Source: Chloroflexota bacterium
GTDB lineage: Bacteria > Chloroflexota > Anaerolineae > UBA4142
DNA length: 64,000 nt
NCBI GenBank assembly: GCA_037440365.1
Contig: JBBIUF010000006.1
Span: forward strand, 10,134 to 74,133
Direction: 5' to 3'
Part shown: positions 35,685-64,000 of the stretch, piece by piece
Position numbering within the stretch: position 1 is the first letter of the stretch
Layout: every line of letters starts with the position of its first letter
The notes under the pieces: model-generated
Seen by the model: only the letters and a program-made list of their open reading frames with translations
The model's database searches: none
Told to the model about the DNA's origin: nothing
Translations under genes and position numbers: made by a program

Positions 35685-35686
35685 AA

Positions 35687-35718
35687 AATCAGGGCGACTC
35701 GAGTCGCCCTGATTTTTT
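35687..35718 (+). terminator. Rho-independent terminator
   Basis: AATCAGGGCGACTC pairs with GAGTCGCCCTGATT, a 28-nt perfect palindrome, followed by TTTTTT and preceded by an A-run. Confidence 0.85.
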
Positions 35719-35739: not shown

Positions 35740-36816
35740 GTGCCTTTCTCATTCCCAAATCTCAATCTGCTAGACAGCCGCGAATTTATGCAGACATCCT
35801 CTCGTCGAATCAAACGCCGACAGTTGCTTTATCTCGGTGTGCTTGGACTGGCTGTGTTTCTGCTTCTGCCACACCTGCTCGGCTTTCACCGCGTCCTGAA
35901 CATTCTGCGCGGGGCGCAACCTGTCTATGTCATTCTCAGCTTGCTTGCCGAAGTCTCGCGCTATTTTATCAGCGCCGCGTCAACGCTCATCCTCGCCCGC
36001 TTGTTTGATCGCCGCGTACCGTTTCTACCGATGACCGAAGCGTTCTTTGCCAGTTCTGCGGCGAACCGCATCTTTTCAACTGGCGGCGCGCCCGGTATGC
36101 TCATCCGCTTGCTCTTTCTCGGCAAGCACAATGTCTCGGCAGGCGCAGTCGCCACAATCTATCTCATTGAGGATATCGCCGGGTTAGCCGTCGGCAGTAT
36201 CGTCTTCTTTGCCGGCATCTGGACCTTGGCGACGAAACAAACGTCCGCCAACGTTGCCACCAATACCGCTCTGATTGCTTCGTTTGCCTCGCTCGCGCTC
36301 ACTGCCGGTTTGCTTTACGCCTTGCGTTATCGCGCTACCATCGAACGCATCGCGCATTGGCTGGCGCTCAAACTCGACGCTCTTGCCGCGCGAATTACCC
36401 GCCGTCCCTTTTACTCACCCGCGCGCGTGCAACACCTCCTTGATGATTTCTACGCTGGCTTGGCGCTCGCCCGCCGCGCACCGCGCACAGTTGCTCTTGT
36501 TTTTATCCTCAACGTGGTGCGCCATGCCGCCGGGCTCGCTGTGTGGTACTTTGCATTTTTCGCTTTGGGACAAACCATCGCACCCGGCATTCTGATCTTG
36601 ATCTATACGCTGGCAAGTGTGCTCTCCACCACCAGTGCCGTACCTGGCGAGGTCGCGATTATGGGCACTGGCTCTGCCATCCTATTCCTTTCGTTCGGCG
36701 TCTCGCCGGATGCCGCCTTGCTCGCGTTGCTGTTATCCCGCGCCATCGCCTTCTGGCTTCCCCTGCCGATCGGCTTGCTCGCGCTCTGGCGCTTGCGCCG
36801 GCAACACGATTTGTGA
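35740..36816 (+). CDS. Flippase-like / lysylphosphatidylglycerol synthase TM-region family membrane protein (UPF0104)
   Basis: 358 aa from a GTG start; the alternative ATG is at 35788 (MQTSS). It begins RRIKRRQLLYLGVLGLAVFLLLPHLLG and has about 8 TM helices typical of this family. Confidence 0.65.
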   Translation: MPFSFPNLNLLDSREFMQTSSRRIKRRQLLYLGVLGLAVFLLLPHLLGFHRVLNILRGAQPVYVILSLLAEVSRYFISAASTLILARLFDRRVPFLPMTEAFFASSAANRIFSTGGAPGMLIRLLFLGKHNVSAGAVATIYLIEDIAGLAVGSIVFFAGIWTLATKQTSANVATNTALIASFASLALTAGLLYALRYRATIERIAHWLALKLDALAARITRRPFYSPARVQHLLDDFYAGLALARRAPRTVALVFILNVVRHAAGLAVWYFAFFALGQTIAPGILILIYTLASVLSTTSAVPGEVAIMGTGSAILFLSFGVSPDAALLALLLSRAIAFWLPLPIGLLALWRLRRQHDL

Positions 36817-50400: not shown

Positions 50401-50586
50401 GGCGCGGCAAATGCTTTGCTCCAAGCGCCCGGCACGCCCGTCGAAACGACGCGGCAAGTTGAAACGGATCAGGCATGGATCCTTGCCCGCATCACATTGA
50501 ACGCGGAAATATTCCAAGCCGCCTACGCGCAAGGGCAAACGTGGAGTCTTGATCACGCTATTGCCGTTGCGCGCGAAAACGCATAA
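47467..50586 (+). CDS. Ser/Thr protein kinase fused to a STAND-type P-loop NTPase and TPR repeats
   Basis: Start moved to MASRILTRL (47467) to avoid overlapping the divergent gene. The kinase motifs are VALKI, HRDLKPENVLV, DFGLAR and APE. The P-loop is LLGCSGIGKTRLA. The C-terminal roughly 400 aa are TPR-like. Confidence 0.85.
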   Translation: MASRILTRLTRALGRGKSSPTHSAGSPNPANAPTPPSQTILDVGALIAQRYRLDAELGRGGMGIVYRAHDMLNDRDVALKIILPDETNRQTREQFLHEAHTTAQLIHPHIITVYETGAVDTGATEPVPFIVMELVRGPSLGDMRGLSFAQIIDLGQQICDALEYAHAQGLIHRDLKPENVLVEKNGYRYIAKLVDFGLARLRGESNLSDNRSVAGTVYYLAPEVIAGEPANIGADLYALGVMLYELVTGHVPFSDWDAETILSQHVQDAVIPPSHTRNAVPPALEAIILRLLAKDPRERFASARQVCEALGQIAIGAEQIAVHTNLPRHATRMIGRANEIAQVRALLEANPVVTLLGCSGIGKTRLALATGDTLFDQFADGVWLVELEPWRDPALVPQLIASVLGIREESQRALMVLLAEHLREKNLLLILDHCDHVIGACAQLIATLVRTSPQVRILATSHTALNLATETSYRVPPLTLSRPDETEPSEIARAAAVQLMTERIRARAPQFEISAAHATLLAQICRRIDGIPLAIELVAARVPGLTLDPVAAQLDQLPTAQTQEQTMRAVIEWSYHRLTVPQQTLFARLSVFIGSCTFADLEAFSGAGTLDVMSQLTQLAHHALVKTSPTNGGELRYHLPEPIREFALAQLRASGTEEITRRNYRNGYLNLAHQAQLHLHRVDQGIWRQRLEAEYANLLAALDWTMERPQEANLAIRFGGALWQFWDGRGYRKDGYARLTKILALPHTLADAPARVDVMIGAGYLAIVQTDYAAAAEWLTASLDIARAQDNQLAIAYALCGLGALAQARRDYAQAALRYHDGWGYFQATGDSWETANALLNLGLVNLKQGKLWDARTHLLTSLNLYRQFGDRRKTAHVQSFLGAIEYARKQYAEAQAYFMASLALWRKLADPFEIAQQLDHLGYVALHENQLTQAHQFFNESLALFKDLNRRRAIADGLYGIAGVIAQRQPERAAQLIGAANALLQAPGTPVETTRQVETDQAWILARITLNAEIFQAAYAQGQTWSLDHAIAVARENA

Positions 50587-50610
50587 AACAAAATCCCTCG
50601 ATAAAAAAAA

Positions 50611-50640
50611 TGACGGGCGAAAATTTCTCCGCGCCCGTCA
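50611..50640. terminator. Bidirectional rho-independent terminator between convergent genes
   Basis: TGACGGGCG pairs with CGCCCGTCA. It is flanked by AAAAAAAA (50603-50610) and TTTTTTT (50641-50647). Confidence 0.85.
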
Positions 50641-50673
50641 TTTTTTTCTGCGTCATTCCGATCCGTGCAATGG

Positions 50674-52854
50674 CTAGATGAAGAGCGGTGCCAACACTAA
50701 CGTAATCGTCGCTAGCAATTTGATCAAGACGTGAAGCGATGGTCCAGCGGTGTCCTTGAACGGATCGCCGACCGTGTCGCCCACGACCGCCGCTTTGTGC
50801 GCGTCGCTACCCTTTTTGTGAACCTTGCCCTTTTCGTCATGGAACTCGCCGGACTCGATGTATTTTTTCGCATTGTCCCACGCGCCGCCGCCGTTATTCA
50901 TCACCGTGGCGAGCAAAATCCCGGCAATTGTGCCAACCATCAACAACGCGGCTTCGGCTTCTGATTTCAAAATGATACCGACGATAATCGGCACGCCAAC
51001 CGCGAGCAAACCCGGAGCGATCATAGCGCGTTGCGCGCCTTGCGCGGTAATATCAACGGCGCGCGCATAATCCGGCTTGTTCTTTCTTTCCATGATCCCA
51101 GGAATTTCGCGGAACTGGCGGCGCACTTCATCCACGATCTTTTCCGCCACTTCGCTGACCGCGCGCATAGCAAACGACGAGAAGAGAAAGATCAACGCCG
51201 CGCCGAGCAGTGCGCCGACAAAGACATCCACCTTACCCAGGTTCACGACGTGCGCGTCGTTCCAAATTTTTAATGCGTCCGCAGAACCCGCGGCAACTTT
51301 GGCAATCGCTATTTTCACTGCCGCCACTTTGTCGAGATACGCGCTAAAGAGCAAGAACGCCGCGAGCGCCGCCGAACCAATGGCGTACCCTTTCGTCAAG
51401 GCTTTGGTCGTGTTGCCCGCCGCATCCAGCGCATCCGTGCCTTTGCGAATTTCTTCCGGCGCGCCAGACATTTCGACAATACCACCGGCATTGTCCACGA
51501 TCGGACCAAACGTATCCATCGCCAAGATAAACGCGGCGGGCATCAACATCCCCATCGTCGCCACGGCCGTGCCGAACACCCCCGCAACATACAGATCAAC
51601 TTTGAGCGCGGCGGCGGCTTGCGAGCCAAGATAGTACGACGCGATCAACGCAATGCCAACTGCAATCGCAGGAGCCGCCGTATTTTCCAAACCAACGGCG
51701 AGACCCGTGATAATGTTTGGTCCCGAGCCGCGCAGAGACGATTTGGCAATGCTTTGCACCGGACGCCACCGCGATTCGGTGTAATACATGGTAATGAGGA
51801 AGAAGGCGACGCTCGTGAGCAAACCAACGCAACCCGCATAAAAGAAAAACATGTTGCCGAGCAAGGTAGTGACGACAAAATACATCGCCGCCGCCGCAAG
51901 CACCACCGTGAGCGCAAACCCGCGAAACATCGGGTTCATTGGCGATTCGCCCTGGTTCAATTTCATACCCGGAAGCGCAGTTGTTGCCCACACGCCCACA
52001 ATTGACGCGATCAAGCCAAGCGCGCGAACGACGAGTGGGAAGAAAATCCAATCAGGATTTTTTGTCACCGAGAAAATCGCGACACCCAGGATCATCGCGC
52101 CGATATTTTCAGCAACCGTGGATTCAAACAAGTCCGCGCCACGTCCCGCGCAATCGCCCACGTTATCGCCAACCAGGTCGGCGATGACACCGGCATTGCG
52201 TGGATCGTCTTCGGGAATGCCCGCTTCCACTTTGCCCACCAAGTCCGAGCCCACATCGGCGGCTTTGGTATAGATACCACCGCCGAGTTGCGCGAACAAT
52301 GCGACAAAGCTCGCGCCGAAACCCATGCCGACGATCAGAAAGGGCGCGTTCTGCGGTTCGGCGAAACCGTTATACAGCATGAACATCAAAAAGACACCGA
52401 TGAGCGAAAGACCTACCACCAGGAAACCGCTCACCGCGCCGCCGCGTAACGCGACCGCCAATGCTGGCTCAACCCCCTTGCGCGCTGCGCCCGCCACGCG
52501 CACATTCGACTGCACCGCCACATACATACCGATAATCCCACTCAATGCGCTCGCCGCCGCGCCAACGAGGAATGCCACCGCAGTCATAATGCCTAATTGG
52601 CTACCCTTGATCGCTGTTTCGGTGAAAGTTTCCATCGAAACCAGCACACCAATAATGACAGCGGCAACAATCGCCAGGATCGCGATGGTGAAATACTGGC
52701 GTTTGATAAACGCCACCGCGCCTTCAAAAATCGTTGCGGCAACTTCTTGCATCGCCGGCGTGCCCTTGTCCCGCTTGAGCACGTCCCAGGCAAGATAGGC
52801 GACAAACAATAATGCCAGCACGCCTGACACGGGAACCATCCAGATCAAACTCAT
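50674..52854 (-). CDS. hppA: Membrane-bound proton-translocating pyrophosphatase, K+-independent type
   Basis: 726 aa with DNVGDCAGRGADLFES and DAAGNTTKALTKGYAIGSA. The Lys in GNTTKA, rather than Ala, is the known marker of the K+-independent class. Confidence 0.92.
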   Translation of the reverse strand: MSLIWMVPVSGVLALLFVAYLAWDVLKRDKGTPAMQEVAATIFEGAVAFIKRQYFTIAILAIVAAVIIGVLVSMETFTETAIKGSQLGIMTAVAFLVGAAASALSGIIGMYVAVQSNVRVAGAARKGVEPALAVALRGGAVSGFLVVGLSLIGVFLMFMLYNGFAEPQNAPFLIVGMGFGASFVALFAQLGGGIYTKAADVGSDLVGKVEAGIPEDDPRNAGVIADLVGDNVGDCAGRGADLFESTVAENIGAMILGVAIFSVTKNPDWIFFPLVVRALGLIASIVGVWATTALPGMKLNQGESPMNPMFRGFALTVVLAAAAMYFVVTTLLGNMFFFYAGCVGLLTSVAFFLITMYYTESRWRPVQSIAKSSLRGSGPNIITGLAVGLENTAAPAIAVGIALIASYYLGSQAAAALKVDLYVAGVFGTAVATMGMLMPAAFILAMDTFGPIVDNAGGIVEMSGAPEEIRKGTDALDAAGNTTKALTKGYAIGSAALAAFLLFSAYLDKVAAVKIAIAKVAAGSADALKIWNDAHVVNLGKVDVFVGALLGAALIFLFSSFAMRAVSEVAEKIVDEVRRQFREIPGIMERKNKPDYARAVDITAQGAQRAMIAPGLLAVGVPIIVGIILKSEAEAALLMVGTIAGILLATVMNNGGGAWDNAKKYIESGEFHDEKGKVHKKGSDAHKAAVVGDTVGDPFKDTAGPSLHVLIKLLATITLVLAPLFI

Positions 52855-53145
52855 TGTGCGCTCCTCCTCTTTGAGATTTTTTCCATACAGAAATATAAAT
52901 GCGGTCGAACAACATTGTTCGGCCGGTCAAGTGAGCATCACCATTGCGCATCTATTCAAAAATGCCAGTCACCCTATCAGTAGGTTAAGCCAATTCTAGC
53001 ACAGGTTTGTGCGAAATGCAAAAGCGCCGCGCAATTTTCGGTGCGCCCCAAAAATACTAGCTAGTCCAGTTTGTATCCAAATCCGTTTTGGGATATACTA
53101 TTTCTGCATGGATCTGTTTCGCAAATTTTCAGATTGGAGGCAAGG

Positions 53146-53517
53146 GTGCCAACCATCATCCCAAGTTTTCTCCTCAAGAAATTGTACGTGCCAGGCAGTT
53201 TCAAAAATACCCCGACCGGATTCCAACTCTCACTGCGCAACACGCTTGCCCCAGGGACATTACTCGGAGTTAGCCCGCTCCAAATTGATGGACGCGATAT
53301 TCCCCTTGAGCACGTTTGGTTTGTCGTTGGCGCTCAAGCGCCGGTGCGTGCCAGTGAGATCGCGCCAACCGCACCGAGTACATTCCCGCTGAACCTTGTC
53401 GTGACCTTTCAGGTAGACGATCAACCGCTCGCCCCCGGCAGACATCGTGTGAGTGTCGTCTTTAACACGAAAGAAGCCGGTGAACTCAAGATTGACGCGG
53501 AGGATTCAATCGAATGA
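53146..53517 (+). CDS. Small uncharacterised protein translationally coupled to gcvT
   Basis: GTG start 5 nt after GGAGG, preferred over the track's TTG at 53071. It is 123 aa and predicted to be beta-rich (LSLRNTLAPGTLLGVSPLQIDGRDIP...RHRVSVVFNTKEAGELKIDAEDSIE). Its stop overlaps the gcvT ATG in an ATGA. Confidence 0.55.
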   Translation: MPTIIPSFLLKKLYVPGSFKNTPTGFQLSLRNTLAPGTLLGVSPLQIDGRDIPLEHVWFVVGAQAPVRASEIAPTAPSTFPLNLVVTFQVDDQPLAPGRHRVSVVFNTKEAGELKIDAEDSIE

Positions 53518-54635
53518 ACACCTTGAAACGAACGCCGCTGTACGAAACCCATCTCGCGCTCGGCGGCCGCATGGTCGAGTTTGGTGGCTGGGAAATGCCG
53601 GTGCAATACAGCGGCATTCTCGACGAACATCAAACCGTGCGCAACGCCGCCGGATTGTTCGACATTGATCACATGGGTCAATTTGAAGTGACCGGCAAAG
53701 ACGCCTTGCCGTATCTGCAACATTTACTCACTGCCGACATTGCTAAACTCGCGTTGAATGAAGCCGGCTATGCGCTCATGTGTTACGCCGATGGCACCGT
53801 CGTGGACGATACGTTTGTGTATCATCTGCCCGGCAAGACCACAAGCGCGCCGCCCAAATTCATGGTCGTCGTCAACGCCTCAAACCGCGACAAGGATTTT
53901 ACCTGGATGCGCGCGCACCTCGGCGGATTCCGCGCGGAACTGCGCGACATTTCCGAAGAGTTGTACATGCTCGCGTTCCAGGGACCGCAAGCCGAACACG
54001 TGTTGCAGAAAATCGTCAAAACCAATCTAGCCAAAATCAAGTATCACCGCGCCAGCACCTTCAAATTCCAAAAACGCTTCGGTCTGCTTGCGCGCACCGG
54101 CTATACTGGCGAAGACGGCTTTGAAATGTTCGTCCCGGTCAAGCTGGGTCCGGCGCTGTGGAACGTAATCTTGGAGGCAGGTCAAGCCCAAGGCGTCAAG
54201 CCAATTGGCTTGGGCGCGCGCGACTCGCTTCGGTTTGAAGCCAAGATGGCGCTCTACGGTCACGAGATTGACGCGCATACCACACCGATGGAAGCCGCAC
54301 TCTCGTGGGCGTGCGACTTGGACAAAATGTTCATCGGCCGCGATTGCCTGCTCAAGCGCAAACTCGAAGGCGTCGCAAAAAAACTCGTCGGCTTTGAAAT
54401 GATCGAACCTGGGATCGCACGCAAGGATTACGAAATTACCAAAGACGGCGCAACCGTTGGCATCGTCACGACCGGAATGCCCTCGCCAACACTCGGCAAA
54501 AATATCGGGCTCGCGTTCGTCAGCCCAATGCTCACTGCTATCGGCACCGAGTTTGAAATTAGCGTGCGCGGCAAGCCCGTAAAAGCTCGCGTAATCAAAA
54601 CACCGTTTTACGCCAACCGCGCCAAAAACAAATAA
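53514..54635 (+). CDS. gcvT: Glycine cleavage system aminomethyltransferase (T protein)
   Basis: 373 aa, starting MNTLKRTPLYETHLALGGRMVEFGGWEMPVQYSGILDEHQTVRNAAGLFDIDHMG. Confidence 0.93.
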   Translation: MNTLKRTPLYETHLALGGRMVEFGGWEMPVQYSGILDEHQTVRNAAGLFDIDHMGQFEVTGKDALPYLQHLLTADIAKLALNEAGYALMCYADGTVVDDTFVYHLPGKTTSAPPKFMVVVNASNRDKDFTWMRAHLGGFRAELRDISEELYMLAFQGPQAEHVLQKIVKTNLAKIKYHRASTFKFQKRFGLLARTGYTGEDGFEMFVPVKLGPALWNVILEAGQAQGVKPIGLGARDSLRFEAKMALYGHEIDAHTTPMEAALSWACDLDKMFIGRDCLLKRKLEGVAKKLVGFEMIEPGIARKDYEITKDGATVGIVTTGMPSPTLGKNIGLAFVSPMLTAIGTEFEISVRGKPVKARVIKTPFYANRAKNK

Positions 54636-54721
54636 ATTCATTCCGCTTTGTGATTTCAGGTTTTGAATTCAATGTCACTTGCAGAATCTGAAATCATCAA
54701 TCTAAAACAAGGAGATCCAAA

Positions 54722-55138
54722 ATGTCTGACAAGCCCGTGCAAGCCATTACGTATGCCGCCGACCGCAAATATGCCGAATCGCACGAATGGGCAAAGCTCG
54801 AAGGCGACCTCGTCGTAATCGGCGTGTCCGATTACGCGCAAGATCAACTCGGCGATGTCGTGTTCATTGAATTACCCGCGGTAGGCGCAGTGTTGGAAGC
54901 AGGCAAAGCCTTTGGCGTCGTCGAATCCGTCAAAGCCGCCAGCGATGTGTTTGCGCCAATCAGCGGCACGGTTACCGCCGTCAACGAAAAACTCGCCGCC
55001 GATCCCGCGCTTGTGAACAAGGATGCCTTCGGCGCGGGCTGGTTTATCAAAGTCAAACTCGGCAACCCCGCCGATCTCGATAAACTGATGAGCGTCGCCA
55101 CGTATCAAAAGAAAATTGAAGCGGGCGAAATCCACTAA
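54722..55138 (+). CDS. gcvH: Glycine cleavage system H protein
   Basis: 138 aa with YAESHEWAK and the lipoyl-lysine context GVVESVKAASDV. Confidence 0.93.
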   Translation: MSDKPVQAITYAADRKYAESHEWAKLEGDLVVIGVSDYAQDQLGDVVFIELPAVGAVLEAGKAFGVVESVKAASDVFAPISGTVTAVNEKLAADPALVNKDAFGAGWFIKVKLGNPADLDKLMSVATYQKKIEAGEIH

Positions 55139-55230
55139 GCCAATAGGAGCAACCATCCCAATGTGCCAAACCGACTCGTTGTATCTTGAGCCGATTTGGC
55201 ACATTGGGCGTGTTTGATTTTGGAGAAACC

Positions 55231-56604
55231 ATGAGCCATCGATTCATTCCCAATACCGACGCCGATCGCGCCGAGATGCTCAAAACGATTGGCGTTCCAT
55301 CCGTCAAGGATTTATTTGTGGATGTGCCAGCGGACGCGCAATATCCCAAACTGAAACTGCCCGCCGCGCTATCCGAGCTTGAGCTTTCGCGCGACATTGC
55401 CCTAATGGCCTTGCGCGACGCGAACCTGGTAGAGAATGCGTGCTTTCTTGGCGCGGGCGCATACAATCACTTTATTCCCGCGACCGTGCCGCACTTGATC
55501 TTTCGCTCCGAGTTTTACACCGCCTACACGCCCTACCAAGCCGAGATCAGTCAAGGCACACTGCAAACAATTTTTGAATATCAATCCATGATTTGTGCGT
55601 TGACCGGTATGGATGCGGCAAACGCCTCGCACTATGATGGCGCAACCGCCGCCGCCGAAGCCGCAATCCTCGCGATCAACCAATTCCCCAGTCGTAACAA
55701 AATTCTCGTTTGTCCCACGTTGCATCCCGAATATCGCGCCACCATGCGCACCTATCTTGCCGGTCACGCCATTGAGATTGTGGGCGATGAGGACACGAGC
55801 AAGACGTTCGAACAAGTGCTGGATCAACATCTCGACGACCAGACCGCGTGCGTGATTGTAGCAAACCCGGACTTTCTGGGTCAGATGCGCGATCTCAAAT
55901 CCGCCGCCGAGCGCGTGCATGTGGCAGGCGCATTGTTCATCGTCGCCGCGTATCCGATCTCGCTCGGTCTGTACGAACCACCTGCCGCGTATGGCGCGGA
56001 CGTGGTGGTCGCCGAAGGCCAAGCGCTCGGCAATCCCATTGCGTTCGGCGGTCCATACCTTGGCGTATTTGCGACGAAAGAAAAATATCTGCGCCGCATG
56101 GCTGGTCGCTTGGTTGGGCAAACCACTGATACGAAAGGACGGCGCGGTTTTACGCTGACGCTCCAAGCGCGCGAGCAACACATTCGCCGCGAAAAAGCCT
56201 CGTCGAATATCTGCTCGAATCAAGCGTTGAACGCGCTGGCCGCGTGCGTTTATCTTTCGACGTTGGGCAAAACCGGCTTGCGCCAGGTCGCCGAATTGTG
56301 CTACCATAAAGCGCATTACGCCGCGCGCAAGATCAATCACTTGGTTGGTTATCGCGTCAACCTCAAGCAAGAATTCTTCAACGAGTTTGTCGTCGAATGT
56401 CCGCGCCCCGTCGCCGAAATCAACGCCATCCTGCGCGAGCAAAAAATTATCGGCGGTTACGATCTCGCCACCGAGTACCCGCACCTCGGTAATGCGATGC
56501 TCGTCGCGGTAACCGAGATGAACACGAAAGAACAAATTGATCAATTCGCAAACGCACTTGGCGAAATCAAGCCGAGCAAAAAAGCGAAAGCGAAGCGAGG
56601 TTGA
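55231..56604 (+). CDS. gcvPA: Glycine dehydrogenase (decarboxylating) subunit 1
   Basis: Start chosen at MSHRFIPNTDADRAEML. It has TAYTPYQAEISQGTLQ. Confidence 0.9.
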   Translation: MSHRFIPNTDADRAEMLKTIGVPSVKDLFVDVPADAQYPKLKLPAALSELELSRDIALMALRDANLVENACFLGAGAYNHFIPATVPHLIFRSEFYTAYTPYQAEISQGTLQTIFEYQSMICALTGMDAANASHYDGATAAAEAAILAINQFPSRNKILVCPTLHPEYRATMRTYLAGHAIEIVGDEDTSKTFEQVLDQHLDDQTACVIVANPDFLGQMRDLKSAAERVHVAGALFIVAAYPISLGLYEPPAAYGADVVVAEGQALGNPIAFGGPYLGVFATKEKYLRRMAGRLVGQTTDTKGRRGFTLTLQAREQHIRREKASSNICSNQALNALAACVYLSTLGKTGLRQVAELCYHKAHYAARKINHLVGYRVNLKQEFFNEFVVECPRPVAEINAILREQKIIGGYDLATEYPHLGNAMLVAVTEMNTKEQIDQFANALGEIKPSKKAKAKRG

Positions 56605-56605
56605 A

Positions 56606-58057
56606 ATGAGTATCGTAGCCAATCAGCCCGAACCATTAATTTTTGAAATCAGCGCACCCGGTCGCATCGGCGCAGAATTGCCAGCGTGTGACGTGCCGCT
56701 AACGGACTTGCCCAAGAATGTGCGCGCCGAATTGAAATTACCCGAAGTCTCTGAACCCGATGTCGTACGCCATTTTACGCGGCTCTCGCAAAAAAATTAC
56801 TGCGTCGATCTCGGCATCTATCCGCTCGGCTCTTGCACGATGAAATACAATCCCAAGATGAACGAAGAGGCCGTCAAACTGCGCGGGTTTTCGCTCATCC
56901 ATCCGTATCAAGATGTCTCGCAAGTGCAAGGCGCAATGCAGTTGCTGTTCGAGTTGCAAACGATGCTCGGCGAAATTACCGGCTTGCCGGCGACGACGCT
57001 GCAACCGGCGGCGGGCGCGCAAGGCGAGCTTGCCGGGATCTTGATCATTCGCGCATACCACGTAGCGCACAAAGACAAAAAACGCATCAAGGTCATCGTT
57101 CCCGATTCGGCGCACGGCACAAATCCGGCAACCTCGTCCATGTCCGGCTTTCAAGTTGTCCAAGTCAAATCGGACGCGCGCGGCAATATCGATCTAAACG
57201 AATTGCGCGCGCTCGCCGACGAGACCACCGTGGGCTTGATGATCACCAATCCCAACACGCTGGGTCTGTTTGAAGAGAACGTCCGCGAAGCGTGCCAGAT
57301 CATTCACGATGCGGGCGGCTTGGTTTATGGCGACGGCGCCAACCTCAACGCAATCGTCGGCGTCGCACGTCCCGGCGATCTCGGCATTGATGTATTGCAC
57401 AGCAACTTGCACAAGACGTTTAGTGTGCCACACGGCGGCGGCGGTCCCGGCGCCGGCGCGGTGATGGTGCGCCAAGACCTCGCGCAATTTTTGCCGGGTC
57501 CCAATGTTGTAAAAAAAGGCAAACAGTACGCATTTGCCATGCCGAAAAAATCCATCGGGCGCGTCAAAGCGTTCTATGGCAATTTTCTCGCGCTCGTCCG
57601 CGCGTATGTGTACATCCGCTCGTTCGGCAAAGAGCATTTGCACGAAATTGCCGAGAACGCGGTGCTCAACGCCAATTATTTGCTGGCGAAACTCAAGGAC
57701 ACGTACAGCGCGCCGTATGGCAATCGTCCATGCAAACACGAGTTTGTGTTGACGGGCACGCCGTTCGTCGAAAAGTATGGCGTGCATACGCTCGACATTG
57801 CCAAACGAATCGAAGATTATGGGTTCTATCCACCGACGATCTACTTTCCGTTGATCGTGCCTGAATGTATCATGATCGAGCCAACGGAAACGCAATCGAA
57901 AGCGAGTCTCGATGAATTTGCGGACGCGCTGATCAAGATCGCAGAAGAGGCGGCGACCGATCCGCAACTGCTCCACGATGCGCCGCACAATGCGCCGATC
58001 ACGCGCCTGGATGATGTCAAAGCCGCGCGCGAGCCGGTGCTGTGTTACAAAGATTAG
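56606..58057 (+). CDS. gcvPB: Glycine dehydrogenase (decarboxylating) subunit 2
   Basis: Start chosen at MSIVANQPEPLIFE, 1 nt after the gcvPA stop. It has LGSCTMKYNPK and the PLP-Lys context NLHKTFSVPHGGGGPG. Confidence 0.9.
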   Translation: MSIVANQPEPLIFEISAPGRIGAELPACDVPLTDLPKNVRAELKLPEVSEPDVVRHFTRLSQKNYCVDLGIYPLGSCTMKYNPKMNEEAVKLRGFSLIHPYQDVSQVQGAMQLLFELQTMLGEITGLPATTLQPAAGAQGELAGILIIRAYHVAHKDKKRIKVIVPDSAHGTNPATSSMSGFQVVQVKSDARGNIDLNELRALADETTVGLMITNPNTLGLFEENVREACQIIHDAGGLVYGDGANLNAIVGVARPGDLGIDVLHSNLHKTFSVPHGGGGPGAGAVMVRQDLAQFLPGPNVVKKGKQYAFAMPKKSIGRVKAFYGNFLALVRAYVYIRSFGKEHLHEIAENAVLNANYLLAKLKDTYSAPYGNRPCKHEFVLTGTPFVEKYGVHTLDIAKRIEDYGFYPPTIYFPLIVPECIMIEPTETQSKASLDEFADALIKIAEEAATDPQLLHDAPHNAPITRLDDVKAAREPVLCYKD

Positions 58058-58071
58058 GGTTCTGAAGAATG

Positions 58072-58107
58072 GAGCCGCGATGATGATTCGTCGCGGCTCT
58101 TTTGTTT
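58072..58107 (+). terminator. Rho-independent terminator of the gcv operon
   Basis: GAGCCGCGA (58072-58080) pairs with TCGCGGCTC (58091-58099), followed by TTTTGTTTC. Confidence 0.8.
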
Positions 58108-58146
58108 CTGAGCAGTGAAATCTGGGCTTGACATTCAAGGAGCAAC

Positions 58147-58749
58147 ATGGAAGACCATCTTCGTAAATTGTTCTGGTATCTCAATCGCTATTTCATGGTC
58201 CCAATGTTTCGGCTGGGCTTGGGACAATGGCTTGGCACACCATTCGGCGGATACATCATGGTCTTGAAAGTGATCGGCAGAAAAACCGGCAAGACTCGGT
58301 TCGTGCCAGTGAACTATGCCATTGAAAATGGACTTGTCTATTGTATTGCCGGCTTTGGCAAGATCAGCGATTGGTATCGCAACGTGATCGCGCGCCCCAG
58401 CATTGAAGCGATATTGCCGAGCGGGACCATCGCCGGTGGCGCGGAAATCGTTACCGACGCGGCAGAACGATTACGCCTGATGCGCCAAGTGTTGATCAAT
58501 GGCGGCTTTGCCGGGTTTGCGTATGGCTATGATCCGCGCACCGTTTCGGCGGAACAATTGCTCGAAACGACGCGCGATGTGCCGCTCATTCGGATTCGTC
58601 CAATCGGCATCGGCAATGGCGCAGGCGATCCCGGCGGCTGGATGTGGATCGTGAGTATCGCCGTGAACGTGGCATTATTTGTTTGGCTTGGACGCAACTT
58701 GCAAAAACGTAAACCAGGTTGCGACTGCTATCAGGCTCCAGCTAAATGA
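58147..58749 (+). CDS. Deazaflavin-dependent nitroreductase family protein (DDN/DUF385-like) with a C-terminal TM helix
   Basis: 200 aa with LNRYFMVPMFRLGLG...VLKVIGRKTGKTRFVPVNY...ISDWYRNVIARPSIEA, matching the F420H2-dependent oxidoreductase family pattern. Confidence 0.7.
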   Translation: MEDHLRKLFWYLNRYFMVPMFRLGLGQWLGTPFGGYIMVLKVIGRKTGKTRFVPVNYAIENGLVYCIAGFGKISDWYRNVIARPSIEAILPSGTIAGGAEIVTDAAERLRLMRQVLINGGFAGFAYGYDPRTVSAEQLLETTRDVPLIRIRPIGIGNGAGDPGGWMWIVSIAVNVALFVWLGRNLQKRKPGCDCYQAPAK

Positions 58750-58979
58750 TCCACCAACCACTTGGCATGCCCGTTGCCGTTGGTCGCACCGCCGAAATTT
58801 TTGCGTGGGACGCTGGGCACGTTTTGAAATTGGATCACACTTGGTGTCCGGCAAATTGGGTTGAGTATGAATCGAAAATCGGATGCATCGTGCATGCCGC
58901 TGGCTTGCCCGTACCTGCCATCGGCGAAATCGTCGAGCACGCTGGCCGACGCGGCATCCTCTATCTTTTGCACGACTAA
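58746..58979 (+). pseudogene. Truncated N-terminal fragment of a phosphotransferase (APH/choline-kinase fold) family gene
   Basis: Only 77 aa: VGRTAEIFAWDAGHVLKL...VEYESKIGCIVHAAGLPVPAIGEIVEHAGRRGILY. This matches the N-lobe of the family, and the ORF then stops. No catalytic HxDxxxxN or DxD region follows. The sequence downstream turns AT-rich. Confidence 0.6.
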
Positions 58980-59164
58980 AACCGGCGCTGCCACAGATAT
59001 GTAAATTTATTCCTTACTCGCAATTGAAAAAGAAGGTAACGGAAATCGCTGGATTGATCAAATACATGAAACCAGAGTTTATTGACGAAATTGCTGAAAG
59101 TTGCGAACCTGATGAATTGTAGTTTGCTTGGCGTGAATAGAATATTTCAGGCACAAATTTCAAT

Positions 59165-59193
59165 TTGACCAACGCGTCAACCCGTGCTATAAA
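59165..59193 (+). promoter_or_regulatory. Candidate sigma70-type promoter of the aspS T-box leader
   Basis: TTGACC (59165-59170), a 17-nt spacer, then TATAAA (59188-59193). Confidence 0.5.
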
Positions 59194-59199
59194 CGATGC

Positions 59200-59409
59200 A
59201 ACGCGGTGATGGACAGAGTACGCGAATCTTCAAGTTTAGAGAGTCGTCCTTGGCTGAAACGACGACCTTGAACTTCGCCGAACGACACTCCGGAGCGTTA
59301 CGGTTTGCTCCCGTTATCAAGCCGCAAGGCGATAGAAAATCTATCGCGAAAAAAGGTGGCACCACGAGAAATCCTCTCGTCCTTTTACGGGCGAGAGGAT
59401 TTTTATTTT
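59200..59409 (+). promoter_or_regulatory. T-box riboswitch leader (probable Asp specifier) with terminator
   Basis: Stem I base: AACGC (59200-59204) pairs with GCGTT (59295-59299). It has a GA/K-turn-like GGUGAUGGA, AGAGUA, an AGAGA bulge (59238-59242) and a distal GCUGAAA loop. The specifier-loop 3' side is GAA-C-GAC-A (GAC at 59284-59286, purine at 59287). The T-box sequence is AAAAAGGUGGCACCACGAG (59355-59366 core). The terminator is AATCCTCTCG pairing with CGAGAGGATT (59370-59401), followed by TTTTATTTT. Confidence 0.8.
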
Positions 59410-59503
59410 GTAACCGTTCGCTAGGACCCCGGCGAGCGCAGAAAATATTTTTCTATTCACGTTCATCCGCGTTCATCTGCGTCCGCTATCACTGGAGGTT
59501 GTC

Positions 59504-60886
59504 ATGGGACAAATTCGCACCACCCAACTGCATGAACACATCGGCGAGCGCGTCACAGTACATGGCTGGCTCCATCAACTCCGCGCGCTTGGCAAAATCA
59601 ATTTCGTGATCGTGCGCGATGGTTATGGAACCGCGCAAGCAATGACGCAAGACGCAACCCTCGTTGCGCCTCTGCGCGGTGTGCAAAATGAAAGCATCAT
59701 CGAGATCACCGGCTCCGTCATGGCAGAAGCACAAGCGCCGGGCGGCATCGAATTGCACGACATTGTCGTGAGCGTGATTACGCCAGTCAATGACTCACTC
59801 CCTTTTCCGATCAACAAACCCGTCATTGCCGCATCGCTCGATGTGTTTCTCGATCACGCCACGGTCGCACTGCGTCAGCCACGCCGGCGCGCGCTCTTGC
59901 GTATTTCAGCCAGCGTCATGGCCGCGTTCCGCGAATATCTCGGCGCCGCCGGCTTTACCGAAATTCAATCGCCCAAACTCGTCGCCTCGGCAACGGAAAG
60001 CGGTGCAAATGTTTTTGCTGTGGATTATTTCGGCACGCGCGCCTATCTCGCACAATCGCCGCAATTTTATAAACAGATCATGGTCGGCGTGTTCGAGCGC
60101 GTGTTTGAAGTGGGTCCCGTATTTCGCGCCGAGCCGCATGACACAACGCGCCACGTGAATGAATATGTAAGCCTGGACGCCGAGTTTGGCTTTGTCGAAA
60201 ATCATTTCACGGTGATGGCGATGCTGTCAGGCGTGATTCGGCACATCATCAACACCCTCGCTGAAAAAAATAAATTCGAAATAGAAATGCTTGGCGTGAA
60301 ATTGCCGGAATTGAATGTCATTGCGAGCGAAGCGCAGCAATCCCCAACTTCCAACGCGGAGATTGCTGCATCGCAAACACCGCTCCTCGCAATGACAAAC
60401 CTTTTTCCGCACATTCATTTCCGCGACGCGCAACAATGGATCTATGAAACCCACGGCGACGATTGTCGCAACGAGCCGGACCTGGCTCCGCAACACGAAC
60501 GTTGGCTGGGCGCTTGGGCGCGCGAAAAATTCAATTCCGATTTTCTCTTCGTCACCGGCTATCCGATGGTCAAGCGACCATTTTACACACACGCCGATCC
60601 AAACGATCCGAAATATTCCAATTCGTTCGACCTGATCTTTCGCGGGACTGAACTGGTGACCGGGGGACAACGCTTGCATCGCTACGAGGATTATCTCGCC
60701 GCGCTCGCTCGCGCCAACCTGCCGGTTGAACCCTTTGCGTATTATCTCGAAACGATGAAATTCGGAATGCCGCCGCACGGTGGTTTTGCAATTGGTCTCG
60801 AACGGTTCGTGATGCAACTCTGCGGCTTGCCAAATTTGCGCGAGGCAACCATGTTCCCGCGCGATACGCACCGCCTTGCTCCATAA
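59504..60886 (+). CDS. aspS: Aspartate--tRNA ligase, archaeal/type-2 (class IIb)
   Basis: 460 aa with an OB-fold N-terminus (RVTVHGWLHQLRALGKINFVIVRDGYG), motif 2 FRAEPHDTTRHVNEYVSLDAEF and motif 3 GGFAIGLERFVMQLCGLPNLREATMFPRDTHRLAP. It carries an 81-nt palindromic insert (see 60316..60397). Confidence 0.88.
   Translation: MGQIRTTQLHEHIGERVTVHGWLHQLRALGKINFVIVRDGYGTAQAMTQDATLVAPLRGVQNESIIEITGSVMAEAQAPGGIELHDIVVSVITPVNDSLPFPINKPVIAASLDVFLDHATVALRQPRRRALLRISASVMAAFREYLGAAGFTEIQSPKLVASATESGANVFAVDYFGTRAYLAQSPQFYKQIMVGVFERVFEVGPVFRAEPHDTTRHVNEYVSLDAEFGFVENHFTVMAMLSGVIRHIINTLAEKNKFEIEMLGVKLPELNVIASEAQQSPTSNAEIAASQTPLLAMTNLFPHIHFRDAQQWIYETHGDDCRNEPDLAPQHERWLGAWAREKFNSDFLFVTGYPMVKRPFYTHADPNDPKYSNSFDLIFRGTELVTGGQRLHRYEDYLAALARANLPVEPFAYYLETMKFGMPPHGGFAIGLERFVMQLCGLPNLREATMFPRDTHRLAP
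60316..60397. mobile_element. MITE-like palindromic element inserted in frame within aspS
   Basis: The terminal inverted repeats are TGTCATTGCGAG (60316-60327) and CTCGCAATGACA (60386-60397), 12/12 bp. An inner pair is GCAGCAATC / GATTGCTGC. It encodes 27 in-frame codons, VIASEAQQSPTSNAEIAASQTPLLAMT. Confidence 0.6.
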
Positions 60887-60897
60887 GGGAATCAAAC

Positions 60898-61347
60898 ATG
60901 GAAAATAAATTTGATCTGCATCCGATCTCGGCTGCCGAAACCCGCGCCTTGCGGCACCGGGTTCTGCGCCCAATGCAACGCCCCGACGAATTGGTTTATC
61001 GCGGCGATGACGCACCCGATGCGTTGCACGCGGGCGCATTCTGCAATGGCGAGTTGATTGGCATCGCATCTGTTTCGCGCGAATCACCACTCGACGAAAC
61101 CAATCCGCGCGCGTGGCGTTTACGCGGCATGGCAACGCTTCCGCAATTTCAACGCCAGGGCGTGGGACGCGCGCTGATCGACCTGTGCCTCGCGCACATT
61201 CTTGCTCACAACGGAAACCTGATTTGGTGCCATGGGCGCACCTCGGCGCGCGCATTCTACGAGTCGCTTGGCTTTTACGCAACCGGCGACGAGTTTATGG
61301 CGCCTTTGAGTGGTCCGCATTTCGTTTTTCGACGCACTCTGCCTTGA
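60898..61347 (+). CDS. GNAT family N-acetyltransferase
   Basis: 149 aa with the acetyl-CoA binding motif RGMATLPQFQRQGVGRALI. Confidence 0.8.
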   Translation: MENKFDLHPISAAETRALRHRVLRPMQRPDELVYRGDDAPDALHAGAFCNGELIGIASVSRESPLDETNPRAWRLRGMATLPQFQRQGVGRALIDLCLAHILAHNGNLIWCHGRTSARAFYESLGFYATGDEFMAPLSGPHFVFRRTLP

Positions 61348-61434
61348 CCGAATCAGTCGTCTTGCATTCGCCGCCCATTTGCCATTGGCGCATAAATCGG
61401 TAGAATAACCGCACCTTAAAAATCGGGAGTATGA

Positions 61435-62892
61435 ATGCACTATCGTTTTACGCCCATTGTTGCAATGATCCTCATGACACTTGCCGCGTGTGGCAACCCG
61501 CCGCAATCCAACAACGATCCAGCACCCACCCCTGCGACAACCAAAATTTTTGTCACGGCAACGCAAATCCCCGTAACCCCCACGCCGTTTTCAATGACAA
61601 TTGTGGATCGCTATACCGTGCGTAACGGCGACACGCTAGGCGGCATCTCGCAACGCTACAACATTGCGCTCGAAGACTTGATGAAGCTCAACGGAATCAC
61701 CAATCCCAATTCACTCCAAGTCGGACAGCAAATTAAAATCACGGTGACGGTCAACCGCCTCGCACCCAATGCAAAATTGATTCCAGATAGCGAAGCCGTT
61801 TACAGCCCCGCATATGAAAAATTCGATGTCGCCGCCGTCGTGAGCCAGTCTAATGGTTATCTGGCTTTATACCGCGAAAAAGTGGAAGGCGAAATGTTGA
61901 CCGGCGCGCAAATCGTCCAACTCGTCGCGGAACGCTTTAGCGTCGGTCCGCGTGTTTTGCTTGCGCTGATCGAATTACAAAGCGGCTGGGTCACGAACGC
62001 GAACCCGGCGCAAACAACATATCCGATGGGCTTGGTGGATGGTTCACGACAAGGTTTGTTTTTGCAAACAAGTTGGGCGGCGAATCATTTGAACGAAGGT
62101 TATTACGGACAGTTGACGGGCCGCCTCGGCGCATACACCTTCAAGGATCGCACCCGCGCGCGGATGAATCCTGGGATCAATCCTGGCACCGCCGCCATTC
62201 AAAATATGCTTGCGCTCACAGCCACCTGGGACACCTGGCAAAATCTGATCGGCAACGATGGATTCAGCGCAACCTACCGCAAATTATTCGGCGATCCAAA
62301 TCAGTTTGCGATTGAACCGCTCATTCCACCCGACTTGAAACAGCCGCCCCTGCGCGTGCCGTGGGGCGACGGCGAAATGTGGTATTACACGGGCGGACCG
62401 CATAGCGGCTGGGGCGATCAAGCCGCGTGGGCGGCGGTAGACTTTTCGCCGCGCGACACGCCGGGCAGTTGCATCGCCTCGCGCTTGTGGACGATTGCAT
62501 CGGCGTCTGGCAAAATCATCCGCGCCGAGCACGGTCGCGTAATCGAGTCGCTGAACAACAATGATTTTCAGGGCAAGGGCTGGACGCTGATGTACATGCA
62601 CATGGCAACCATCGGTCGCGTGACAGCTGGCACATCCGTCAACACCGGAGATCACATTGGACATCCATCCTGCGAAGGCGGCACTGCCGAAGCCAGCCAC
62701 GTGCATTTTGCGCGGCTCTACAACGGTCAATGGATGGATCCAACGACTTTGCCGTTTATCGTTTCTGGCTGGGCGATCACGTCATTGGATCAAGAATATG
62801 AAGGCAACATGACACGCAACACCGAAACGCGCCCAGCGTGCAACTGCCGCGATGATGCCAAGAATGGAATTGTCGCAGACACGGGACAATAA
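61435..62892 (+). CDS. LysM domain-containing M23-like peptidoglycan metallopeptidase (lipoprotein-like N-terminus)
   Basis: 485 aa with the lipobox-like LAAC. The LysM domain is YTVRNGDTLGGISQRYNIALEDLMKLNGITNPNSLQVGQQIKI. The C-terminus has AVDFSP and ASHVHFARLYNGQWMDP (HxH). Confidence 0.65.
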   Translation: MHYRFTPIVAMILMTLAACGNPPQSNNDPAPTPATTKIFVTATQIPVTPTPFSMTIVDRYTVRNGDTLGGISQRYNIALEDLMKLNGITNPNSLQVGQQIKITVTVNRLAPNAKLIPDSEAVYSPAYEKFDVAAVVSQSNGYLALYREKVEGEMLTGAQIVQLVAERFSVGPRVLLALIELQSGWVTNANPAQTTYPMGLVDGSRQGLFLQTSWAANHLNEGYYGQLTGRLGAYTFKDRTRARMNPGINPGTAAIQNMLALTATWDTWQNLIGNDGFSATYRKLFGDPNQFAIEPLIPPDLKQPPLRVPWGDGEMWYYTGGPHSGWGDQAAWAAVDFSPRDTPGSCIASRLWTIASASGKIIRAEHGRVIESLNNNDFQGKGWTLMYMHMATIGRVTAGTSVNTGDHIGHPSCEGGTAEASHVHFARLYNGQWMDPTTLPFIVSGWAITSLDQEYEGNMTRNTETRPACNCRDDAKNGIVADTGQ

Positions 62893-62929
62893 GCCCAACG
62901 CTCAATCCTCCGCCGATTGCATTCCAAAC

Positions 62930-64000
62930 ATGAAACTCTACTACGGTTGGATCGTGGTCACGGTTGCCTTTGCCACACTCCTCGTCTCACTTGGCATCCG
63001 TTTCACCTATTCGATTTTTTTCGTGCCGCTGACCCAGGAATTTGGCTGGGATCGCGCCAGCACCTCGAGCATCTTTTCGATCAGCCTGCTCCTCTTTGCC
63101 GTCGTCGGTCCGTTCCTCGGCAATTTGCTAGATCGCGTTGGGGCGCGCATCGTCTTTACGGGTGGAAGCATTATCCTCGGCGTCGGCTTGATCTTGAGCG
63201 GCACCACGCAATCGTACTGGCAAATGATTGTGTATTACAGTGTGATTGCGTCGCTCGGACTTGCCGCGCTTGCGCTCGGCATGCACGGCATTGTCCTCTC
63301 ACGCTGGTTCATCCGTAAACGCGGCTTGGCAATCGGCATTGCGTTTGCCGGTACCGGCATTGGCACATTTATTTTTTCGCCGCTCGTCGAACAGTTGATC
63401 GCGCAATCGGGCTGGCGCAACACGTATTTTGTTCTTGGCGCGATTGCACTCAGCTTGCTCGTGCCGATCAATGCGATCTGGGCACGCACACGACCGCAAG
63501 ACCTGGGCTTGTTGCCCGACGGCGACACCATCGTCCGCAAGCGCGATCCTCAACACAAACCATCGGCGCACACCGCGCGCACCGTGTTCCGCGATTGGCG
63601 TTTGTGGATGTTGCTCGGCGCGACGTTTCTTGCGCTGACCGCCGCGCGCATGATCGTCGTTCACGCCGTCGCGCATATGGTGGACGTTGGCTTTACGCCG
63701 CTGTTCGCCGCAACGGTGTTCGGCTCGGTCGGCGCAGTGCAAGCGCCCGCAACCGTCGTGTGGGGCTGGGTTTCGGATCGCATTGGGCGCGTGTGGGCTT
63801 TTGCACTCGGCTCGATCTGCGTGATCGCCGCCATTGGCATTTTGTTATTGCTCGAAGGCAATGCCAACCCGGCAATCGCCTGGCTCTTTGCGCTCGCCTT
63901 TGGCTTGGGCGATTCATCGCGCACCTCATTGCTCAACGCGCTCACCGCCGACTTGTTCGAGGGTCCCGATTTTGGCACGATCAATGGATACAACATTACC
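62930..64000 (+). CDS. MFS transporter (oxalate/formate antiporter-like subfamily); 3' end cut by the right window edge
   Basis: Absent from the track because there is no stop in the window. My translation from the ATG at 62930 is MKLYYGWIVVTVAFATLLVSLGIRFTYSIFFVPLTQEFGWDRASTSSIFSISLLLFAVVGPFLGNLLDRVGARIV... It stays open for 357 codons to the edge with MFS-type helices. Confidence 0.8.
   Translation, partial: MKLYYGWIVVTVAFATLLVSLGIRFTYSIFFVPLTQEFGWDRASTSSIFSISLLLFAVVGPFLGNLLDRVGARIVFTGGSIILGVGLILSGTTQSYWQMIVYYSVIASLGLAALALGMHGIVLSRWFIRKRGLAIGIAFAGTGIGTFIFSPLVEQLIAQSGWRNTYFVLGAIALSLLVPINAIWARTRPQDLGLLPDGDTIVRKRDPQHKPSAHTARTVFRDWRLWMLLGATFLALTAARMIVVHAVAHMVDVGFTPLFAATVFGSVGAVQAPATVVWGWVSDRIGRVWAFALGSICVIAAIGILLLLEGNANPAIAWLFALAFGLGDSSRTSLLNALTADLFEGPDFGTINGYNIT

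Follow-up and report, generated by a model that had tools for sequence, protein, structure and literature searches.

The aspartyl-tRNA synthetase gene (aspS) of a Chloroflexota bacterium (Anaerolineae, UBA4142) carries, within its reading frame, an 82-nucleotide (nt) palindromic element that belongs to a hairpin-forming repeat family dispersed over several bacterial phyla. The gene is located in a 64,000-nt stretch of NCBI GenBank assembly GCA_037440365.1 (contig JBBIUF010000006.1, positions 10,134 to 74,133 of the forward strand), which is referred to here as the window and to which all coordinates without a locus label belong. The element, at 60316 to 60397, adds 27 codons to aspS, and the same codon position is filled in other, non-sister Chloroflexota lineages, in one of them by a palindrome of a second family. 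The element is probably selfish DNA: a hairpin repeat that is translated with the gene and tolerated at a permissive aspS site that has been occupied repeatedly.

The element and its host gene

The element, to which no strand is assigned, was delimited by its sequence, its folding, and a profile search with nhmmer. Its outer boxes, which are terminal inverted repeats that are perfect over 12 bp, are TGTCATTGCGAG (60316 to 60327, + strand), encoding (N)VIAS, and CTCGCAATGACA (60386 to 60397, + strand), encoding LAMT. They enclose, on the same strand, a left inner box, GCAGCAATCC (60334 to 60343; family consensus, GAAGCAATCC), the variable apical region CCCAACTTCCAACG (60344 to 60357), and a right inner box, GGAGATTGCTGC (60358 to 60369; family consensus, GGATTGCTTC), and the inner pairing is formed by GCAGCAATC (60334 to 60342) with GATTGCTGC (60361 to 60369). 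Both pairings had been described in a first-pass annotation made from the sequence alone, and both were recovered at the same positions. The 82-nt strand folds into a single long hairpin, with an energy of -37.3 kcal/mol as RNA (z score of -6.2; none of 200 shuffled sequences was equally good) and -21.9 kcal/mol as DNA (z score of -5.6). No direct repeat is present at the ends of this copy.

The net gain to the gene is 81 nt (60317 to 60397, + strand), read as GTC ATT GCG ... CTC GCA ATG ACA without a stop codon. In the aspS open reading frame (ORF), the insert stands in the context ...GVKLPELN-VIASEAQQSPTSNAEIAASQTPLLAMT-NLFPHIHF..., in which VIASEAQQSPTSNAEIAASQTPLLAMT comprises residues 272 to 298. 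The earlier count of exactly 27 added in-frame codons is correct, and the peptide given with it differs trivially, by the omission of the N after LAMT. The antisense strings that had also been pointed out, CHCEERCLRCSNL and LLRFARNDI, are located in a spurious ORF on the - strand (60227 to 61282).

aspS (59504 to 60886, + strand) encodes an archaeal-type, nondiscriminating aspartyl-tRNA synthetase (AspRS) of 460 amino acids (aa), and its initial reading as a tRNA synthetase gene is sound. The protein matches NCBIfam models NF003483 (519.1 bits versus a cutoff of 353) and TIGR00458 (371.6 versus 368.4 bits) and PDB entry 1n9w (Thermus thermophilus AspRS2; E value, 7e-104), the last in two blocks, query residues 7 to 269 and 325 to 460, that are broken at the insert. 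The best Foldseek matches of its structural model (1b8a, 3nel, 3kfu, and 1n9w) indicate an archaeal-type AspRS fold of class IIb. All close AspRS relatives are from Chloroflexota, as expected from the Chloroflexota-like host suggested before. Among the 119 closest full-length homologs, retrieved from a collection of 5.8 billion proteins, 113 have a segment of 12 residues (K-L/M-P-x-V/A-P-E-x-F/I-P-H-I) where the window protein has 39, and the normal homolog length is 433 aa, which equals 460 minus 27.

The insert lies between motif 2 and motif 3, directly after a conserved proline codon. Alignment with Escherichia coli AspRS pairs GVKLPEL...FPHIHFRDA with GVDLGD-FPVMTFAEA, and the site falls where the E. 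coli enzyme has a linker of two residues (GD), flanked by GVDL and FPVMTF. Identity of the site with the insertion domain of bacterial-type AspRS was considered and rejected, the site being some 20 to 30 residues upstream of the start of that domain. An AlphaFold2 model with a mean predicted local distance difference test (pLDDT) value of 72.9 and a moderately confident catalytic core, used here for a local statement about the insert only, gives pLDDT values below 50 at residues 273 to 297 and values of 90 to 98 for the helices at 234 to 263 and the strand and helix at 303 to 317. The predicted disorder between confidently folded elements is consistent with the tolerant loop that the first-pass annotation presumed, and a disordered excursion rich in Ser, Thr, Ala, Gln, and Pro would plausibly be harmless in a very short linker between conserved core segments. 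The motif 2 region (59960 to 60175; AspRS residues 153 to 224) also has pLDDT values below 50 despite its highly conserved sequence, which is probably a limit of a monomer model and of a shallow alignment of closely related sequences.

Assemblies are notoriously prone to error at interspersed repeats, and the window evidently comes from a metagenome-assembled genome (MAG), in which a read through the repeat could have misjoined two contigs inside aspS. An independent NCBI MAG (GCA_034436435.1, contig DAOTVH010000126.1) is, however, 99.86% identical to the window over 14,497 nt (49504 to 64000), with 21 single-base mismatches, and carries the element with the same junctions and a single synonymous difference, a change of GCA to GCG that makes the inner stem longer. 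The identical junctions in an independent assembly exclude a chimera, a check that had been called for at the outset. In addition, the two flanks together encode an uninterrupted AspRS that can be aligned with its relatives over the full length, and an insert at the same codon is present in three other lineages from different samples; the probability of an assembly or binning artifact is negligible.

A large, cross-phylum family of hairpin repeats

A scan of IMG/VR with the pattern GTCATTGCGAG-N35-65-CTCGCAATGAC, which requires the two 11-nt outer boxes and not the inner ones, found at least 120 stretches, versus roughly 0.1 expected by chance. The widespread GTCATTGCGAG-type palindromic repeat named in the first-pass annotation is thereby borne out. 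The window copy has both outer boxes, as T-GTCATTGCGAG...CTCGCAATGAC-A over 82 nt from end to end, and it is matched over its full length (49.9 bits; E value, 3.3e-13) by an nhmmer profile built from 108 IMG/VR copies. Family statistics were taken from 136 unique IMG/VR copies among the matches listed (loci L007 to L126). The lengths of these copies range from 60 to 87 nt and show no modulo-3 bias; 124 copies have the inner box GCAATC and 127 have the inner box GATTGC, beyond what the search required. The inner boxes of the window copy differ from GAAGCAATC(C) and (G)GATTGCTTC by one change each, and the two changes compensate for each other. The palindrome is one base longer than the boxes, with a pyrimidine (Y) at -1 in 130/136 copies and a purine (R) at +1 in 133/136, a Y...R rule that the flanking T and A of the window copy obey. 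Target-site duplication is absent: identical 1-nt flanks were found in 6/136 copies, versus about 34 expected, and identical 3-nt flanks were found in 0/136, the flanks being complementary rather than direct repeats. The stem continues for 2.4 pairs into the nonconserved center, versus 0.36 in shuffled centers, and one arm of many copies contains a further small hairpin whose sequence is unrelated. In a folding comparison across the family, the window copy has a weaker hairpin (-34.9 kcal/mol) than the family median (-43.4 kcal/mol).

Within one element the short motif ATTGC recurs at four places, and each arm is an inverted pair, ATTGC-N-GCAAT. Variant repeats, in which the boxes have changed together (ATTGC to ATTCT or ATTTC), lie at L149 2572 to 2650 and 20833 to 20921, in L217 to L225, and at L001 11785 to 11867. 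One variant family, with the outer boxes GTCATTCTGAG and CTCAGAATGAC, occurs in a Caldilineaceae genome and nine IMG/VR contigs; the inner boxes of its IMG/VR copies are GAAGAATC and GATTCTTC in 8/9 cases and of the main type in 0/9. A third variant, in L001, has GTCATTTCGAG paired with GAGAAATC. Base pairing joins left with right only and cannot explain why outer and inner boxes change together, and the simplest reading of these sequences is that all four boxes would be sites of one sequence-specific protein.

Replicons with family copies include those of Novosphingobium (at least 40 places on one replicon), Methylosinus, Methylocystis, Methylobacterium, Legionella, Halomonas, and the cyanobacterium Aulosira. 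Three copies are present within 13 kb in the genome of one aspS relative (P0003; L001). Copies are depleted from ORF interiors about 3-fold, with 27 of the 136 observed versus 77.4 ± 4.1 at random positions, and most of the ORFs that hold these 27 are arginine-rich GC artifacts. Genuine in-frame copies are found in two phage portal proteins, one with Portal_Mu and Mu F domains (L120 3129 to 3203) and one of the SPP1 type (L105 941 to 1015). In L120, the element separates the portal domain from the Mu-F domain and is followed by a partial second copy (DVIASGEKQSP), and it may have joined two genes into one. In L088 (3052 to 3440), three tandem repeat copies with a period of 156 nt have flanking sequence in common, which represents a higher-order array rather than dispersed single copies. 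The flanks of the 136 copies are pyrimidine rich on the left and purine rich, often GGAGG-like, on the right, and the family hairpin may often extend into or abut ribosome-binding sites.

Two weak nhmmer matches, at window positions 36223 to 36292 and at L133 10839 to 10902, look like chance and were set aside. No Rfam match was obtained for the window copy (E values up to 10) or for typical copies, and the window copy found no match among the INPHARED phages. A search for papers that print the core strings GTCATTGCGAG, CTCGCAATGAC, GATTGCTTCG, GAAGCAATCC, LLRFARND, and DCFVA returned only primers and unrelated matches and no published name for the family, many subscription-journal papers being outside its reach, and a keyword search found no literature on in-frame palindromic insertions in aminoacyl-tRNA synthetase genes. 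Protein searches with the insert peptide gave one irrelevant match for a concatenated query and none for a junction-spanning query, in a word index unsuited to such queries. A metagenome scan for the junction of the right repeat with FPHIHF returned only the P0003 contig already known and a single intergenic copy due to chance.

The same aspS site in related lineages

Filled alleles were counted among the top 120 homologs, and proteins were paired with nucleotide loci as P0003 with L001, P0004 with L003, P0020 with L005, P0012 with L004, and P0026 with L127. Homologous inserts are present at the same codon position in P0002 (80% identical to the window protein, with 29 extra residues), P0003 (74%, with 30), and P0004 (75%, with 31), and the segment is therefore not an indel unique to the window, the possibility for which an ortholog alignment had been proposed. 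The inverted repeats are intact in the DNA of L001 and L003, where complete elements with perfect outer boxes and an additional arm hairpin are found. In P0020, 18 nt remain, including a decayed right box, CTCGCGATGCC. The extra segments of P0002, P0003, P0004, P0020, and P0012 all follow directly on the same proline codon, and in the codon alignment the extra DNA always starts directly after the conserved Met/Leu-Pro codons.

The extra DNA of P0012 belongs to a different, smaller family. Its 14 extra residues are encoded by GTCA-CACTTGCGCCGCACGCAAGTG-CAGGTGTGACA, with the palindrome at L004 1092 to 1112, and the family pattern is (GTCA)CACTTGC-N-GCAAGTG(CAGGTGTGA), with a palindrome of 21 to 35 nt, and is represented by four copies. 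Two of these are on the - strand of the window. One, GTCA-CACTTGCACCGCACGCAAGTG (31576 to 31596), lies in frame in mvk (31001 to 32032, - strand), which encodes a mevalonate kinase-like GHMP kinase, and contributes the peptide SVTLAPHASVG; the other (29575 to 29595) is intergenic and has the right extension GCAAGTGCAGGTGTGA in common with the L004 aspS copy. The possibility that the L004 palindrome is a decayed large element was rejected because this extension is shared with an independent small-family copy, which makes the L004 insert a genuine member of the small family. A related small palindrome (L127 204 to 229) is nested within the left outer box of a large element in the aspS leader of L127, and the ends TGTCA...TGACA are common to both families. 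Two different hairpin families have thus come to occupy one aspS codon position, and the mvk case, which had been linked to the aspS insert from the beginning and is real, is part of the same phenomenon.

A rival reading is that the ribosome skips the insert, as it does the gap of T4 gene 60, or that the insert is cut from the transcript, leaving a mature enzyme of 433 aa. The hairpin is strong, and codons on its two sides loosely resemble take-off and landing codons, being Asn codons in the window (AAT before and AAC after) and ACA on both sides in L003. However, the putative take-off codon is not followed by a stop codon, and a matched codon pair is absent from L001. The frame is the same and free of stops in all filled alleles, with lengths that differ by multiples of 3 only (27, 29, 28, and 28 codons), and a 6-codon remnant without a hairpin and the 14-codon insert of another element are likewise in frame. 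In addition, no bacterial route of mRNA splicing or religation is known that would apply to removal of the hairpin, and bypass or excision is very improbable.

A parallel insertion in the T-box leader

aspS of the window is preceded by a T-box leader (59197 to 59387, + strand; Rfam RF00230, 102.8 bits versus a gathering score of 93) that ends 117 nt upstream of the start codon and, in the leader alignment, has a plain Stem III hairpin, GGCGAUAGAAAAUCUAUCGC. Its specifier in the Rfam register reads GAC (Asp), as would suit a functional AspRS. In the subclade of P0003, P0020, and P0026, the place of Stem III is taken by a copy of the large family, which is bordered by ...GAGGCGA... and GTCGCGCAGAAAGGTGGCACCACGAG. 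The leader copy is intact in L001 (1384 to 1465), decayed in L005 (812 to 893), and intact with the nested palindrome in L127 (about 190 to 307); the window counterpart (about 59330 to 59360) is an ordinary Stem III. In L127, the leader is filled and the site in the coding sequence (CDS) is empty. What a disordered loop in a surface linker is to the protein, a hairpin element in place of a hairpin stem is to the RNA. No Rfam T-box at the gathering score was found in the relatives' loci searched, whether or not they have a leader copy.

Two further observations concern these leaders. The aspS leader of a "Ca. Aquidulcis" MAG (L133, about 9750 to 9870) has at Stem III an insertion of approximately 110 nt with hairpins of its own, unrelated to either family. 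The specifier (window 59280 to 59300) is GAC in the window, L003, L128, L134, and L135 and AAC (Asn, within GAAC) in L001, L005, L127, L133, and L004, which suggests that the tRNA sensed in the regulation of nondiscriminating AspRS may switch between tRNA-Asp and tRNA-Asn.

The aspS linker codon and T-box Stem III might both be true hot spots, hit independently several times by two element families with TGTCA...TGACA termini in common, and not mere sites of survival. The repeat would then belong to a hitherto undescribed hairpin class that spans phyla, is free of target-site duplication, contains one recognition motif in four covarying copies, and is moved by a sequence-specific enzyme into structure-defined targets. 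This reading is considered unlikely; in a stronger version, the retained copies would modulate aspS expression through an mRNA hairpin.

One ancient insertion or repeated occupation

The distribution of filled alleles might alternatively go back to one ancient insertion that was domesticated, with a role in translational pausing, mRNA stability, or contact with the transamidosome, and that became patchy through homologous recombination between alleles and occasional loss. The window protein and P0002 are sisters in 188/200 bootstraps and share an insert with the same flanks, E-L/I-N ... N-L/I-F, and the insert is therefore older in that lineage than a protein divergence of about 20%, and still open. 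Moreover, the arm hairpins of L001 and L003 differ by paired changes (CCCCGCAGGGG versus CCGCGAAGCGG). The tree of the six filled or remnant sequences (window, P0002, P0003, P0004, P0020, and P0012) speaks against a single event: they form a clade in 0/200 bootstraps and are interleaved with empty alleles, the nearest relative of P0003 being the empty P0026 (92.6% identical) and those of P0004 being the empty P0030 and P0050 (about 87%). The residues A-P-E-T are kept by empty alleles and outgroups, whereas the A-P codons are lost in filled alleles, from which the empty state is thus not derivable by deletion alone. Sliding-window identity revealed no recombination tract around the insert site. 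In addition, the CDS copies are no closer to one another than to paralogous leader copies, the window copy being equally similar (0.85) to the nonorthologous leader copy of P0026 and to the CDS copy of P0004, with a median of 0.71 for random pairs of the family. The element is mostly deleted in one lineage and absent from 113 of the 119 relatives, a different palindrome family occupies the site in P0012, and the loop is modeled as disordered and is less conserved than the enzyme (67% versus 80% between the window and P0002). A single domesticated insertion consequently appears to be a minor possibility, and the sequences favor more than one gain at the aspS site, with a lineage-local subfamily as the source.

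Several observations weigh against the view of the element as a tolerated selfish repeat at a repeatedly occupied site. In three lineages, the outer boxes agree at 100% of positions and the fourfold synonymous sites at only 50 to 60%, as would be expected under one conserved insertion, and perfectly identical terminal repeats in an old insert imply that something conserves them. Comparison of filled and empty alleles does not give a clean insertion, since 9 to 12 extra nt are present on the left and the A-P codons are replaced. Derived flank states are common to some filled alleles (Gly for Ala-Pro in P0003, P0004, and P0020 and (C/T)TG AAT on the left in the window and P0003), which also agrees with a single insertion and hints at common descent of some of them together with recombination. 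The family is sparse near the aspS genes of relatives, with four copies in 1.15 Mb over 80 related Chloroflexota aspS loci, and the 64-kb window holds no second copy of it; no mobilizing enzyme for the large family was found in searches for RAYT transposases. Translation of the loop and retained activity of the enzyme would follow from the intact frames only.

With these points on the other side, the tolerated, translated, selfish repeat remains the probable explanation. The element is a copy of a small, nonautonomous, hairpin-forming interspersed repeat of several bacterial phyla, which spreads without target-site duplication and would be recognized by a sequence-specific protein. One copy lies in the DNA for a very short AspRS surface linker, just past the conserved proline codon, where it would be transcribed and translated, in the single frame open across both outer boxes, as a 27-residue disordered loop rich in Ser, Thr, Ala, Gln, and Pro in an enzyme that still functions. 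The linker would be permissive, and hairpin repeats would have settled in it on more than one occasion among related lineages, with resident copies kept for a long time in some lineages and eroding in others by point changes and in-frame deletions. Neutrality of the loop, the number of separate insertion events, and protein-mediated mobility are inferred in this scheme. Exaptation of the loop or of the mRNA hairpin, which the first-pass annotation had suggested for hairpin repeats in this genome, is not supported; the P0020 remnant and the below-median hairpin of the window copy fit tolerance and slow decay.

Comparison with known repeat systems

In-frame palindromic repeats in genes are established for Rickettsia, with occasional cases among other small repeats, and the Rickettsia palindromic elements (RPEs; Ogata et al. 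2000, summarized in PMC10969869) are about 100 to 150 bp long, AT rich, restricted to Rickettsia, and often intragenic, some families having almost half of their copies in genes. RPEs resemble the element described here as short palindromic repeats in frame within unrelated housekeeping genes that add a peptide at positions compatible with the fold, and as repeats with further copies in noncoding RNA or intergenic DNA, here the T-box leader of relatives. In contrast, the family described here is 60 to 90 nt long, GC rich, mostly intergenic, and distributed over Chloroflexota, Proteobacteria, Cyanobacteria, and many uncultured and viral contigs. The Rickettsia-like behavior that had been proposed for the element thus appears analogous, and the likeness, drawn by comparing descriptions, is claimed for in-frame residence only, since host phylum, length, and base composition differ.

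REP sequences and REPINs, which are mobilized by RAYT (Y1/HUH) transposases, consist of two inverted conserved blocks around a poorly conserved pairing spacer (Bertels and Rainey 2011; PMC3116915). The large family has the same arrangement, including a spacer that pairs in the hairpin. It is also, like REPINs, mainly extragenic and free of target-site duplication, shows concerted block changes in its variants, and could adopt an alternative clover fold, each arm having its own ATTGC...GCAAT pair. REPINs are usually lineage specific and vertically inherited, whereas the boxes of this family are nearly identical across phyla. No homologs of E. coli RayT were found on the copy-rich plasmids and chromids searched, and a RAYT could be chromosomal; a search with a RAYT motif pattern that was too crude to count also found nothing. 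Three RAYT genes were examined, on one plasmid from Chloroflexota and two from cyanobacteria; the repeats beside them are REPs of their own, of the GTAGG type, and not members of the large family. On a Chloroflexota plasmid (CP069395.1; L214 2750 to 3000 and 3513 to 3850), hairpin doublets of the form GTAGGGTGCGC...GCGCACCCTAC stand on both sides of a gene for a RAYT-like transposase, an arrangement that looks like a classical REPIN-RAYT system distinct from the large family.

The label of miniature inverted-repeat transposable element (MITE) that the first-pass annotation used holds in part. Like classical MITEs such as Correia/NEMIS, ERIC, and Nezha (PMC10969869), the element is small and noncoding, has terminal inverted repeats, and is dispersed, with occasional in-frame ORF fusion; unlike them, the family lacks target-site duplication, is palindromic throughout, and has a second, inner pair of boxes. 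No parent insertion sequence with GTCATTGCGAG ends was seen in the loci read, among which no systematic search was made.

The attC sites of integrons are imperfect palindromes with outer and inner protein-binding boxes around a variable center, have the cores RYYYAAC and GTTRRRY, and are thought to be active as folded single strands. The large family is similar in architecture only, with a comparable length and outer and inner box pairs around a variable center. Its ends, GTCATTG and CAATGAC, are not attC cores, however, and its copies are dispersed singly and not arranged in cassette arrays by an integrase. The small dispersed repeats (SDRs) of cyanobacteria, which PMC3116915 cites, are found nested in other repeats. 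The small palindrome is similarly nested, as CACTTGC...GCAAGTG in the terminal repeat of the larger element in L127, and also stands alone in genes and between genes. It differs from SDRs in its sequence and its Chloroflexota host, and the comparison concerns a family known from four copies only.

The window also contains two perfect intergenic A-run/T-run palindromes, AAAAAATCAGGGCGACTC/GAGTCGCCCTGATTTTTT (35683 to 35718) and AAAAAAATGACGGGCG/CGCCCGTCATTTTTTT (50604 to 50647), which are unrelated to the repeat families and look like bidirectional intrinsic terminators.

Implications

In-frame palindromic colonization of housekeeping genes is a textbook phenomenon for Rickettsia only, and the kind of event described here is known already from the palindromic elements of that genus. 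What is new, within the reach of the literature search, is the repeat family, with its four covarying boxes, lack of target-site duplication, and cross-phylum range that is far wider than that of RPEs; the host, in which the tRNA synthetase gene of a free-living Chloroflexota lineage is colonized; and the finding of one codon site and one riboswitch stem that have been occupied repeatedly. The family yields many spurious hypothetical proteins, with strings such as VIASEAKQS, RHCEERSDEAIQ, SLRGAKRSNP, DCFASLAMT, and LLRFARNDG, and it may also push T-box scores under the detection threshold in relatives with a copy in the leader; annotation would gain from a family model of the large repeat. The relatives of the window bacterium provide a natural time series at a single codon, with empty alleles, intact elements, changes in arm hairpins, a deletion remnant, and a different element. 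Together with the parallel insertion in the riboswitch stem, the aspS site would allow targeting to be tested against selective filtering and would permit study of how new loops enter proteins.

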